Shown here: positions 1-3,000 of the stretch, piece by piece | How positions within the stretch are numbered: the stretch's first letter is position 1 | How the letters are laid out: each line of letters opens with the position of its first letter | IMG/VR virus record: IMGVR_UViG_2526164663_000039 | DNA length: 4,877 bases | Direction: 5' to 3' (one strand) | From: a virus | Lineage: Duplodnaviria; Heunggongvirae; Uroviricota; Caudoviricetes | Program-made: the position numbers

Positions 1-3000
1 TTTGAAAAATATAATTTTATTTCATCCTCCTGGTCACTTTGGGGCACGTCTGGGGCACGGGCATTAAGGACATTATTCAACATGGCAACCTGAGTCACGC
101 TGCACTCAGGCATCCATGCACCATAAACATTGTAGACCATGCTGGCGCTGGAGTGCCCCATCTGTGATGCAATAAATGTCGGGTTTGCTCCGGCAGATAA
201 AGCCCAGCACGCATAGGTATGGCGTGACTGATACGCTTTACGGGATCGGATACCCGCTCTTTTTATTGCTGAATCCCATGTCGCTCCGATGGAGCTTACC
301 GCGTAGTTAATACCCGCCTTGTGATTCTTGCGAACGATTTGCGGACAGAAAACAAAAGTGCACTCGTGCAAAATTGTTCTTCCGTACTCGCGTAATTGAA
401 CAGTGATCTGATGCTGCCTGCTAAGACGAGTAAGCATCGCCTGGTTTTTAAGTGCTTCAATTGCTGGTGCCAGAAGATGTATAACCCGGTTAGTGCCTGC
501 GTCGGTCTTTGGTAGCGTAAAATCACCTATTTTTGTAAAATTTCGTCGCACTGTTATCGTGCCAGCTTTCAGGTCGATATCCTCCCATGCAAGTGCGGCA
601 ATTTCACCGTGTCGCATCCCTGTAAAAACAGCCACTGTCCAGAGGTTTTTGGTCTGTTGATGATGGCAGGCATCAATGAGACGGCTAAACTCATCTCTGG
701 TCAGTGGATCCGGCACTGGTTTTGATTTCCTCAGCGGTGTTATTGAATTAAAGGGGTTTTTCTCCAGATACCCGTTTTCGGCGGCAAAGCTGAACATTCC
801 GGCTGTTGTTGTCATGTAATAGTTCACTGTGGGTACGGTTCTTCCTTTTCGGGACGTGCTGGTTTTCCTGCTTCCCTTTTCCCCGGTCAGTAAATCTTTC
901 CTGATAAACAGCAGATCTTCTTTTGTAATCGATGACGCCAGCCTGCCAGGACCAAGCCTCGGTAGCATATTTTTCATCACTGATTGATAACGATTTAAGG
1001 CGTTACTACTGATTTCCATTACTTTCAGAGTAAGCCATTTCTGTGCCAGTTCACCGACGGTGATATCTTTTTTACCAGGCCAAATAGCTTCAGGTTAGGT
1101 GAGTCAGGGAATCGATCGGCATAATCAAACGTTCCTGTTCTGATTGCAAAGCAGACCGAAGCCCTTAACTCACCAGCGATCTTTCTGTTTTTCGGTGTAT
1201 CGGGCACGCGAAGATTTTCGCGCACTCGTTTACCCCTGTACTTAAACGTTATTCGGAGTTTTCCTCCGTGATTTTCAACGCCGGCTGGATAGGCTGAATT
1301 CGCCATTGTTCCTCCTGCGTCCAAGAGCACGCTCAGGTTATACTCTTATGGACAAGAATTAAACATCCTGAGATGGTAAGGGTTGGTTTTTGATCCAAGT
1401 GTTGATGGTAGGAAGATGATAGAGACATTCGCTGTTTTTCTTTGGCGTTCCGTCGGGGGCGATTTGTTTATATTCTCTGCCGTTCATCCACGCACTGTCC
1501 CTGGCGCGTAATATTGTTCCTTTTCTCAGGCCTGTTACAGCCATTAAAAGCTCCAGTGTTACCCATTCATTCGCATTTATCTGTACAACAGGTGTGATGA
1601 CTGGCTGAATGCCATGGTTATGTTGGTTTACTAACTCGCGCATAAGTTGCCTCTGCATGTGTAAGAAAAAACCGCCCGAAGGCGGTTGTCAGTTGATTGA
1701 TGTACGGCGCATTTTTCGAAGGCTGGCAATATGCTTTTCCTTCTCAATTTCCGCTTTAATCATATGCAGTTCGTTGTGCTCGATTCGCTCAAATTCTTCA
1801 TTAAATGCACCAATTGAAGTGGCTCTGGTTCTGCCGTCGAGCCTTCGGTAGATCACCTGAGTCAGAGTTACCTTGCATATTTCTACCGGATAGTTGTTGG
1901 CATCAACGAAAGACTGCCCGCGCTGGATCAGGACGAACACTGGTTGTATTCCTTGAGTGCCATATCATAAACACGGCATGCCGAGAGGTGTGTTGTAGTC
2001 AACGTCGTTCGTATCCTGAAAAGTCCATGTGTTGTGACGGTAACTTCCGGGGCTTTGAGTTTCACTGCATCAACGATATGCTGATGTTTGCGGCTTTCGA
2101 ATATAGAGCTGGAGATAACCACACTTGCTGTTAAACCGTAACTTTCAAATGTGATTTTCATGTCATTATCCTCGCAGTTAGCCGGGCAACAAAAATAAAT
2201 AATGTTGTTCCTGCGAATAACAGGATACCGCCCGTCATTAGAGAAAGGAAAAACAATATTAATGTACGCGGGTTGTTTCTCAAAATATTCTCTCTGTGAT
2301 TCGCTCACTCTGACAATTCGTTGATCAAGTCACGGTATTTATTCAGTTCTTGCAGCGCCTTACATGCACCCTCCCATCGTTTCTGTTTCCGCCCGGCGCG
2401 ACGCGCTTCTTTCCGTGATTTACGTAGCAGGTCACCTATAATGTTGTGCTGCACTGGCTGCACTGGCTGCACTGAGGCGATATTTGGTTTTTTGTCCACT
2501 TCCCTTGCAACTGCCTGCCAGATGTCATTTTTTACAGTTACTACCCCCTGGTTTTTTAACTTCCATAGAGTGTCAATAACGTCATTCAAATCAATATTGA
2601 GACCTTTAGAAATACTTTCGGCTGATGCTTTTCCTAATTTGTTCAATTCTGTGAGCACTGCGTTCATTTTTTTCTCCTGATATTTTAATGTCGGTGGGGC
2701 TGTTATACGGTTGGTGAGGTGTCAGCTTCTTCTACCAGCTTTTCCAGTTCATCCAGCTTGCGGGAAAGAATTTCACCAAACAGATGAAGTTCTGCATCTG
2801 CTGTAATCGGGATTGGAACAAATCGTATTCCACTTCTGGCAAGTTGCAGGTTAGCCACGGTTAACCTCCTGCGGCGGTTCCGGTAGCGGCATCCAGTGTG
2901 TGGCCTGTTCAATACCATTACCATCAATACCATTACCAGGCGCAACCGTTATCTGCCCACGCCGAAAGGTGCTTCCTGTATAGCGTGCGGAGCATATTAG

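Follow-up and report, generated by a model that had tools for sequence, protein, structure and literature searches.

A block of four small genes occupies positions 1689-2858, on the minus strand, of the window, meaning the whole stretch of 4,877 nucleotides (nt) of viral DNA (Caudoviricetes; IMG/VR record IMGVR_UViG_2526164663_000039) that was analyzed. The open reading frames (ORFs) of this block are termed A, B, C, and D here, from the upstream to the downstream end. The block is the already known xis-proximal, variable end of the exo-xis early region of Shiga toxin (Stx) phages, and its novelty is modest. It probably forms the variable tail of the pL operon of an Stx lambdoid prophage and constitutes a mosaic of small early modulators, not one system. 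The most likely role of its products is that of early-expressed small modulators of the lysis-lysogeny decision and of host transcription.

The origin of the window is indicated by its close relatives. By megablast, positions 1600-2950 are 100% identical to Escherichia coli O26:H11 str. 11368 (NC_013361) and to other O26 E. coli that produce Shiga toxin (STEC); positions 1-3689 are 99.7-99.9% identical to Stx1a-converting phages and ~98% identical to the O104:H4 phage P13374. This near-identity, together with the gene order in strain 11368, identifies the window as part of an Stx1a prophage that is integrated at wrbA and belongs to the E. coli O26:H11 type, namely its int-xis end. In strain 11368, the order is wrbA, integrase, excisionase, the block, a gene with a domain of unknown function (DUF), DUF551, then ea22-like genes, anti-RecBCD, kil, and cIII. 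According to the NC_013361 annotation, the prophage genes lie on one strand throughout from integrase to cIII, and gam is named in this neighborhood as well (cIII-kil-gam...ea22-DUF551-block-xis-int-wrbA). Immediately upstream of xis-int, the block makes up the promoter-distal tail of this leftward early (pL) operon, in keeping with the int-proximal location among small, non-structural accessory genes that had been proposed in the preliminary description of this DNA.

The same genes are found in the well-studied Stx phage Φ24B, which carries the block at 99.4% identity over 96% of its length (HM208303, 1632-2897) as vb_24B_1c (D), vb_24B_2c (C), vb_24B_3c (B), and vb_24B_4c (A). The block lies between exo and xis in Φ24B, and in NC_013361 it falls within the cIII-to-int stretch. 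The gene order is equal in the two, D is 100% identical to vb_24B_1c, C is identical over 77 amino acids (aa), and a terminator follows vb_24B_1c as it follows D. The two differ in the int/xis module, in the number of repeat units in B (2 in the window and 6 in Φ24B), in the upstream DUF551 gene, which is cut by an insertion sequence (IS) in the window, and in the annotation of C. For cloning of this Φ24B region, the Węgrzyn group employed primers that map to HM208303 positions 1621 and 4710, and the forward primer corresponds to window positions 1678-1689. The published exo-xis plasmid therefore includes these ORFs. The preliminary description regarded this block as the part of the window most likely to hold undescribed biology, an expectation that the Φ24B match, the position inside the cloned exo-xis amplicon, and the family assignments of A (Orf63 family) and D (which shares the domain of the regulator RgdR) do not bear out. 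The block ORFs nevertheless lie outside the conserved exo-xis core (orf60a, orf63, orf61, orf73, and ea22), in the variable part downstream of ea22 (per PMC8614690); A, as a paralog, is the one ORF among them with a link to a core gene. Three of the four ORFs belong to Pfam families, and two of these families have a characterized member.

ORF A (2703-2858) encodes 51 aa from a GTG start, ORF B (2305-2667) 120 aa from ATG, ORF C (1928-2161) 77 aa from ATG, and ORF D (1689-1940) 83 aa from GTG. At the upstream end, the stop codon of the DUF551 gene and the GTG start of A overlap in GTGGCTAA (2851-2858), and at the downstream end C and D overlap by 13 nt (1928-1940). Both junctions had been reported in the preliminary description, as had strong Shine-Dalgarno sequences for three ORFs, which are found before A (AGGAGG-6 nt-GTG), B (AGGAG-6 nt-ATG), and C (GAGGA-7 nt-ATG), while D has just AAGGA-9 nt-GTG. 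Packing is not head to tail throughout, as first described, since 35 nt separate A from B and 143 nt separate B from C. A fifth candidate ORF, which was initially overlooked (2158-2283), lies in the latter gap.

Evidence that all four ORFs are genes comes from the ratio of nonsynonymous to synonymous substitution rates (dN/dS), which was calculated pairwise by the Nei-Gojobori method against diverged copies, with shifted-frame controls. In frame, dN/dS is 0.24 for A and 0.30 for B in comparison with phage PA2, and 0.33 for C and 0.09 for D in comparison with a diverged locus termed L028. The shifted frames of the four ORFs give values of 0.5-2.2, or zero synonymous changes. A, B, C, and D are therefore real genes under purifying selection in these frames, and the lengths and coordinates given in the preliminary description agree with this result.

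The extent of ORF C (minus strand; the vb_24B_2c equivalent, in PHROG 1001) required revision of the existing annotation. Both Φ24B vb_24B_2c and the original annotation of strain 11368 have C as a 126-aa protein that starts at GTG 2308, and the "GTGA" junction at 2305-2308 noted in the preliminary description is part of this alternative reading and not of the 77-aa ORF. In an exhaustive HMMER search of 1.84 billion cluster representatives, the homologs of C are 73-80 aa long and align only to residues 50-~121 of the 126-aa reading. The first 49 residues have no homolog among these representatives beyond the 126/130-aa annotations of the lineage itself; the few other matches that overlap them are repetitive proteins with multiple matching stretches, and all relatives begin at M50. 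In loci of the L028 type, which carry a 72%-identical relative, the exo stop codon is found just upstream of the methionine of C. These observations set C at 77 aa from ATG 2161 and leave a 143-nt gap between B and C, and the 126-aa model is rejected. In some E. coli isolates, frameshifted copies (P0005, 153 aa; P0003 and P0007) fuse C to D or change the C-terminus of C. The site of these frameshifts encodes the run TTLTTTH, which suggests a slippage-prone repeat at about window 1975-2000.

The distribution of these genes points to separate modules. Among 5426 complete E. coli genomes, relatives detectable at the megablast level were found in 303 genomes for A, 304 for B, 156 for C, and 220 for D, and in 147 for the spacer between B and C. 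A and B are tightly linked and C and D loosely linked, and all four together are the combination of one lineage; judged by co-occurrence, they are not inherited jointly as a single system. Phages such as PA2 carry A and B alone beside xis. Conversely, L028-type loci have the order exo-C-D, and in phages AU6Stx1 and POCJ13 the match is confined to D and the 3′ end of C; locus L034, too, has D with a remnant of C. To look further afield, 21 distant Enterobacterales loci that hold a C homolog were collected with a sub-alignment of C homologs. Only 1 of the 21 (Erwinia) has a DUF4222 gene, the family of D, within 3 kb, and there D precedes C with a 4-nt overlap. Obligate pairing of C and D was considered and is rejected, as the other 20 diverse loci have no DUF4222 gene within this distance. 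A 51%-identical homolog of D sits after a different small winged-helix (wHTH) gene with the same 13-nt overlap. The block is thus described as a mosaic of separately exchanged modules, namely A with B, the 41-aa candidate ORF of the spacer with C, and D with its terminator, and not as a dedicated four-gene system.

ORF A, on the minus strand, is the equivalent of vb_24B_4c and belongs to the DUF1382 family (PF07131; PHROG 292), with a Pfam score of 60.4 bits against a cutoff of 27 over profile positions 10-59 of 60. It matches the structure of λ Orf63 (PDB 8DSB) with E=1e-5, in an alignment that pairs QLARSGIRFVPIP...KL with SLAQIGIRFVPIP...KL. A keeps the strand IRFVPIP, and the Orf63 residues E36, H38, L44, and K47 have identical counterparts in it. 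The roles of Orf63 residues, including the E36/K47 pair of helix 2, have been described (PMC10869804). λ Orf63, a pro-lytic exo-xis protein that forms an intertwined dimer, has a nuclear magnetic resonance structure and phenotypes on record. A shares with it the Pfam family, the features listed above, and the location in the pL early region. Unlike λ Orf63, A is a second, xis-proximal paralog, and Φ24B retains the ortholog too (vb_24B_8c). The 51-aa form of A has an isoelectric point (pI) of 4.64 and corresponds to the small acidic protein of the preliminary description.

The N-terminus of A has a separate history. In relatives with a DNA methyltransferase gene upstream (P13374, Ss-VASD, and PA2), homology to A ends at ~2846, and these phages encode MSEKTTLTKASPVELRQCLEIANQLARSG... 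instead. A recombination joint at 2846-2858, inside A, is followed upstream by the DUF551 gene in the window and Φ24B or by the methyltransferase gene in the other phages, which gives two different N-termini of A among phages. In both the window and Φ24B, these alignments show, recombination has put the 3′ end of the DUF551 gene in place of the N-terminal third of A. The native Orf63-type N-terminal segment (KASPVELR..., with conserved arginines, the start of helix 1, and a full helix α1) is not present in A, and position 54 has Leu instead of Lys. The start codon is ambiguous as well. It may be GTG 2858, which has a perfect Shine-Dalgarno sequence and gives 51 aa, or ATG 2918, which gives 71 aa with an arginine-rich leader, and each form is annotated on at least 1000 contigs. 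Within the 3′ part of the DUF551 gene, window 2909-2938 is a perfect 15-nt tandem duplication (TCAATACCATTACCA twice) that encodes GNGID-GNGIE and also falls inside the alternative 71-80-aa extension of A.

These features raise the question of whether part of the block is decaying, with A and the 41-aa ORF as remnants that owe their survival solely to a young, nearly clonal lineage. The first ~24 native codons of A were replaced at the joint near 2846-2858. For the 41-aa ORF, the spacer is nearly invariant in 83 phage records and 147 genomes, so that its survival is uninformative about selection; each of the four substitutions observed there alters the amino acid whichever of the examined frames is read, and a profile test described below was negative. 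However, A retains the structured core of Orf63 apart from ~3 residues of helix 1 (~8 of 11 are kept in the 51-aa form), the E36/K47 pair, and a perfect AGGAGG before GTG 2858, and its identity stays at 95% or more in 303 genomes, in 143 of which the neighboring B has diverged to 80-90%. The 41-aa ORF also has the length of most of its counterparts, and its stop/start overlap and C-terminal ARLxAR are as in some of them. Partial decay is considered unlikely, and in the preferred reading A would be one of the small early modulators.

ORF B (minus strand) corresponds to Φ24B Gp05 (vb_24B_3c) and matches PHROG 1888, the DUF1627 group, over its full length with E=7e-76. Against Pfam PF07789 (DUF1627), it scores 28.7 with a cutoff of 28.1, and only the C-terminus is aligned. 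Residues 3-48 give weak matches to wHTH proteins (TrmB, Csa3, and TFE), all below family thresholds. A published AlphaFold/RoseTTAFold model of Gp05 (PMC8614690) comprises three elements, namely winged helix, PVQ repeat, and coiled coil. B differs from Gp05 in PVQ copy number and in two residues (D48G, and Ser to Pro immediately ahead of the repeat). From these models, B may be divided into a candidate N-terminal winged helix, the PVQ repeat, and a basic, predicted coiled-coil segment at the C-terminus, and the winged-helix DNA binder of the preliminary description is retained as a candidate.

The PVQ repeat itself lies at 2448-2474 and consists of the 9-nt unit CAGCCAGTG (coding strand), for which Tandem Repeats Finder reports period 9, 3.0 copies, and 100% matches. 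Exact runs of CAGCCAGTG vary from 2 to 9 copies over 23 sequences that carry B, with 2 in the window and 6 in Φ24B. Such changes in copy number would alter the length of the linker between the winged helix and the coiled coil of B.

ORF D, on the minus strand, is the vb_24B_1c equivalent and belongs to DUF4222 (PF13973; PHROG 285). It scores 56.4 bits against a cutoff of 27 over profile positions 2-52 of 53, and RgdR reaches 82 bits with this profile. The preliminary description held that two of the four proteins match no known family. This is incorrect for D and holds in part for C, which has a PHROG and no Pfam family. RgdR (ECs1581, from OI-51/Sp7) is a 99-aa, prophage-encoded regulator of enterohemorrhagic E. 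coli (EHEC) that activates LEE1 of the enterocyte effacement locus (LEE) and type III secretion (T3S), represses motility, and binds DNA non-specifically. Its RGD tripeptide (residues 20-22) has been linked to T3S activation. Like RgdR, D is small, basic, and prophage-encoded and has the PF13973 domain with the pattern G..D...V...R.DG....F. Unlike RgdR, it has 83 aa instead of 99, the position of RGD aligns with R7-G8-Q9, and it begins 3 residues before the DUF4222 domain, with no N-terminal extension of the RgdR type. Moreover, RgdR lies in a P4-like element beside a primase, while D lies at the end of a lambdoid early operon. The two proteins are ~19% identical (pairwise BLASTP E=0.71), and D is a distant member of the RgdR domain family. 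The AlphaFold2 (AF2) model of D, with a mean predicted local distance difference test (pLDDT) score of 87.3, is a five-strand Tudor/SH3-like barrel with a basic helix at residues 55-81. On the strength of this model, Tudor-like domains that bind RNA polymerase (the UvrD/PcrA C-terminal domain, the CarD/Mfd RID, and the NusG KOW) may be counted among the closest known relatives of the block in fold.

An intrinsic terminator follows D. It lies at 1670-1687 on the minus strand, 2 nt after the stop codon of D and just upstream of xis, and consists of AACCGCC-TTCG-GGCGGTT followed by TTTTTCTT. The RNA folds with -11.9 kcal/mol (z = -3.5), and none of 200 shuffled sequences is as stable. Homology with Φ24B, which has a different int/xis module, starts at window 1666 and includes the hairpin, which indicates that the terminator travels with D. 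With a terminator between D and xis, the early promoter reaches xis-int only through antiterminated transcription.

The terminator also bears on whether C and D belong to the early operon at all. They could form a moron, an autonomous unit of spacer, small ORF, C, D, and terminator that is on in the repressed prophage and contributes to lysogenic conversion, with D as an RgdR-like regulator of LEE, type III secretion, and motility in LEE-positive O26 EHEC. A strong intrinsic terminator closes such a unit directly 3′ of D, and D, whose Pfam domain is that of RgdR, shows the strongest constraint among the four (dN/dS 0.09). Copies of the RgdR family are all prophage-borne, and several have been reported in strain 11368. 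In or beside the upstream spacer are two σ70-like sites with 9/12 matches, at 2316-2287 (TTGAGA-16-TAATAT) and 2283-2256 (TTGTCA-18-GAGAAT). However, promoter-like matches are no more common than in shuffled sequence (4 found and 3.4 expected), and the low identity of D to RgdR, the RGQ in place of RGD, and the missing N-terminal extension weaken the functional analogy. In L028-type loci, moreover, C and D follow directly after exo without the spacer, which fits co-transcription with the early operon. An autonomous conversion unit is thus considered distinctly unlikely, and transcription of C and D as the tail of the pL operon is preferred.

The fold of C was predicted from an alignment of 12 diverse homologs. 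The AF2 model (pLDDT 90.9) is a ββαββα two-layer structure that resembles ACT domains. In a search of BFVD with this model, only the Φ24B protein has an E-value below 0.001, and the weaker matches are nearly all unnamed proteins. C appears to share only a resemblance of fold with the ACT and DCoH-type ββαββα domains, which are small ligand-binding or oligomerization domains. Unlike these, it is a stand-alone 77-aa phage protein with 7-16% identity to them and no common motifs. The model suggests a generic binding or oligomerization fold, from which no function follows.

The spacer between B and C holds the fifth candidate gene, an unannotated ORF of 41 aa (2158-2283, minus strand) with a TTG start that encodes a single-pass hydrophobic peptide. 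Its TGA stop overlaps the ATG of C (ATGA). Of the 21 distant loci with a C homolog, 8 (in Raoultella, Citrobacter, Pantoea, Yersinia, and Mixta) have an ORF for a hydrophobic peptide of 40-45 aa at this very position. The stop overlaps the ATG of C in 7 of the 8, and in the eighth (L038) it ends 2 nt short of this ATG. These distant counterparts are under purifying selection, with dN/dS of 0.19-0.35 in frame and above 1.2 in shifted frames. An ungapped comparison of the window peptide with the Mixta peptide gives 11 identities over 41 residues, among them ARLxAR close to the C-terminus. The BLOSUM62 sum is 39, a value reached by only 5 of 20000 block-preserving shuffles. The distant counterparts exist as 41-aa NCBI proteins with the name "sodium:solute symporter" (P0046, P0048, and P0050-P0056; relatives of L037/L048 2879-3004), a label that almost certainly arose when a single transmembrane helix was misannotated and the name then propagated.

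Other observations are less favorable to the window peptide as a gene. The TTG start and a weak Shine-Dalgarno sequence count against it, its exact sequence has no match among 15 billion predicted proteins, and when a hidden Markov model (HMM) built from the foreign peptides is run against all frames of the window, the 41-aa ORF does not stand out. Given this HMM result, the positional evidence and the ungapped similarity count as moderate support and no more. The spacer, with identities of at least 99% throughout the 83 phage records and at least 95% in the 147 genomes, is too uniform for a selection test, and the four substitutions seen in it are nonsynonymous in every frame examined. A structured RNA was not found in the spacer (z = -0.52), and a search of Rfam gave one chance snoRNA match elsewhere in the window. 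By its sequence features and position, it is probable but unproven that the 41-aa ORF is a fifth gene, or a recent relic of one. A bolder proposal is that it encodes a genuine membrane peptide translationally coupled to C, as the E. coli/Stx-phage member of a conserved pair of a transmembrane peptide and a 77-aa ACT-like protein that occurs in early regions of prophages throughout the Enterobacterales, and that this pair forms with D a new early-gene device that reprograms host transcription or envelope physiology. There is only a small chance that this is correct. If it were, such a device (e.g. with D acting on RNA polymerase or LEE promoters) would tie the Stx1 prophage to virulence regulation.

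The hydrophobic peptide also recalls the functions suggested in the preliminary description, which included anti-restriction, superinfection exclusion, toxin-like activity, and host takeover. In this form, the membrane peptide with C, or C with D, would be a superinfection-exclusion, abortive-infection, or toxin-antidote pair. Small, overlapping, and coupled ORFs, one of which encodes a single-pass hydrophobic peptide, have the architecture of some toxin and exclusion modules, and the location in the early region is non-essential. Nevertheless, searches of PADLOC, Pfam, and NCBIfam gave no match to defense, toxin, antitoxin, or anti-restriction families, and the sub-threshold wHTH matches of B (Csa3/CasR), the only PADLOC signal, are regarded as noise. 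The partners of C and D vary among genomes, unlike those of obligate pairs, and lytic propagation of Φ24B without the whole exo-xis region is not significantly different. A dedicated exclusion or toxin pair is accordingly given very little probability, and modulation of the lysis-lysogeny decision and host transcription remains the preferred role.

The preferred role draws on published work with Φ24B. With the exo-xis region on a plasmid, lysogenization was reported to be lower and induction delayed yet more effective (PMC3824215). Deletion of the region is reported to reduce expression of the SOS regulon and of phage lytic genes after H2O2 treatment (Licznerska 2016, as cited in PMC10789677). 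The deletion used by the Węgrzyn group is described solely as the region between exo and xis.

From the gene order and these phenotypes, a working model may be drawn. After infection or induction, the block would be transcribed from pL by N-antiterminated RNA polymerase, and translation would depend in part on coupling, through the ATGA overlap of the 41-aa ORF with C and the 13-nt overlap of C with D. The products would be small binding proteins without enzymatic activity, which adjust the lysis-lysogeny decision and the transcription of the host and are not parts of the virion. By analogy with Orf63, A would form an intertwined dimer. B, as modeled, could be a dimeric winged-helix DNA binder whose reach is set by the variable PVQ linker. 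The Tudor-like barrel and basic helix of D may contact DNA or RNA polymerase, as has been proposed for RgdR, and C may be a small oligomerizing α/β adaptor that works with the membrane peptide or with D.

Several points weigh against this model. The published exo-xis phenotypes concern the whole region and are not mapped to this half. Among the block ORFs, the searchable literature names only vb_24B_3c, and only as a model, and in the proteomics of Φ24B lysogens, the mass and pI of the unassigned proteins P5 and P6 fit none of these ORFs. A may be impaired through the loss of its native N-terminus. The fold matches of C and D are to very common small folds, at 6-16% identity, and make for weak predictions of partners such as RNA polymerase and DNA; the RGQ of D and its missing extension are likewise unfavorable to a role like that of RgdR. 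Finally, a strong terminator downstream of D and an AT-rich spacer ahead of the 41-aa ORF and C would also fit an autonomous moron unit in place of plain read-through from pL. As for homology to characterized proteins, it is confident for A and present at the domain level only for D, while B has been modeled only and C has no characterized relative.

The genes that flank the block are of known types. On the downstream side, next to the integrase gene, lies an excisionase gene of the DUF1233 type (1359-1658, minus strand; Pfam PF06806, E=1e-30; PHROG 539), as in the RefSeq annotation. A protein of ~48 aa with the consensus MNKAFE.WVR.RYG.RYDLTRD..G.YCRE.VKRM..W.HC.GL is encoded in the distal early operon of many Enterobacterales prophages, near or directly upstream of excisionase-type genes (L035 4203-4349, L036 4335-4481, L038 4203-4349, L040 4127-4279, L056 939-1085, and others), and the window is without it. 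The integrase gene, also on the minus strand, has a T6 run at window 1068-1073 where NC_013361 has T7. This 1-nt deletion causes a frameshift, such that the N-terminal ORF stops at 1025 and the remainder lies in another frame, and it could be a genuine inactivating mutation or a homopolymer sequencing error.

On the upstream side, the "early-region gene" of the preliminary description is the DUF551 gene (2851-3705, minus strand; Pfam DUF551, E=3e-21). An insertion of the IS3 family at 3689/3690 truncates this gene at its 5′ end, and the window departs from NC_013361 at 3690; the TTG start listed for the gene at 3705 is therefore inside IS sequence. The IS3-family element extends over 3690-4877, with orfB at 3733-4551 (transposase, 334.7 bits) and an orfA fragment at 4587-4877, and is absent in strain 11368.

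These results do not describe a new kind of system. What is new are the corrected gene models, in which C has 77 aa and not 126 and A is without its native N-terminus, along with evidence for the modularity of the block. To these are added two confident fold predictions, for C and D, the link between D and RgdR, and a candidate membrane-peptide gene. Together they provide concrete constructs for dissecting the xis-proximal half of the exo-xis region, a region that affects the lysogenization and induction of Stx prophages and hence the amount of Shiga toxin.

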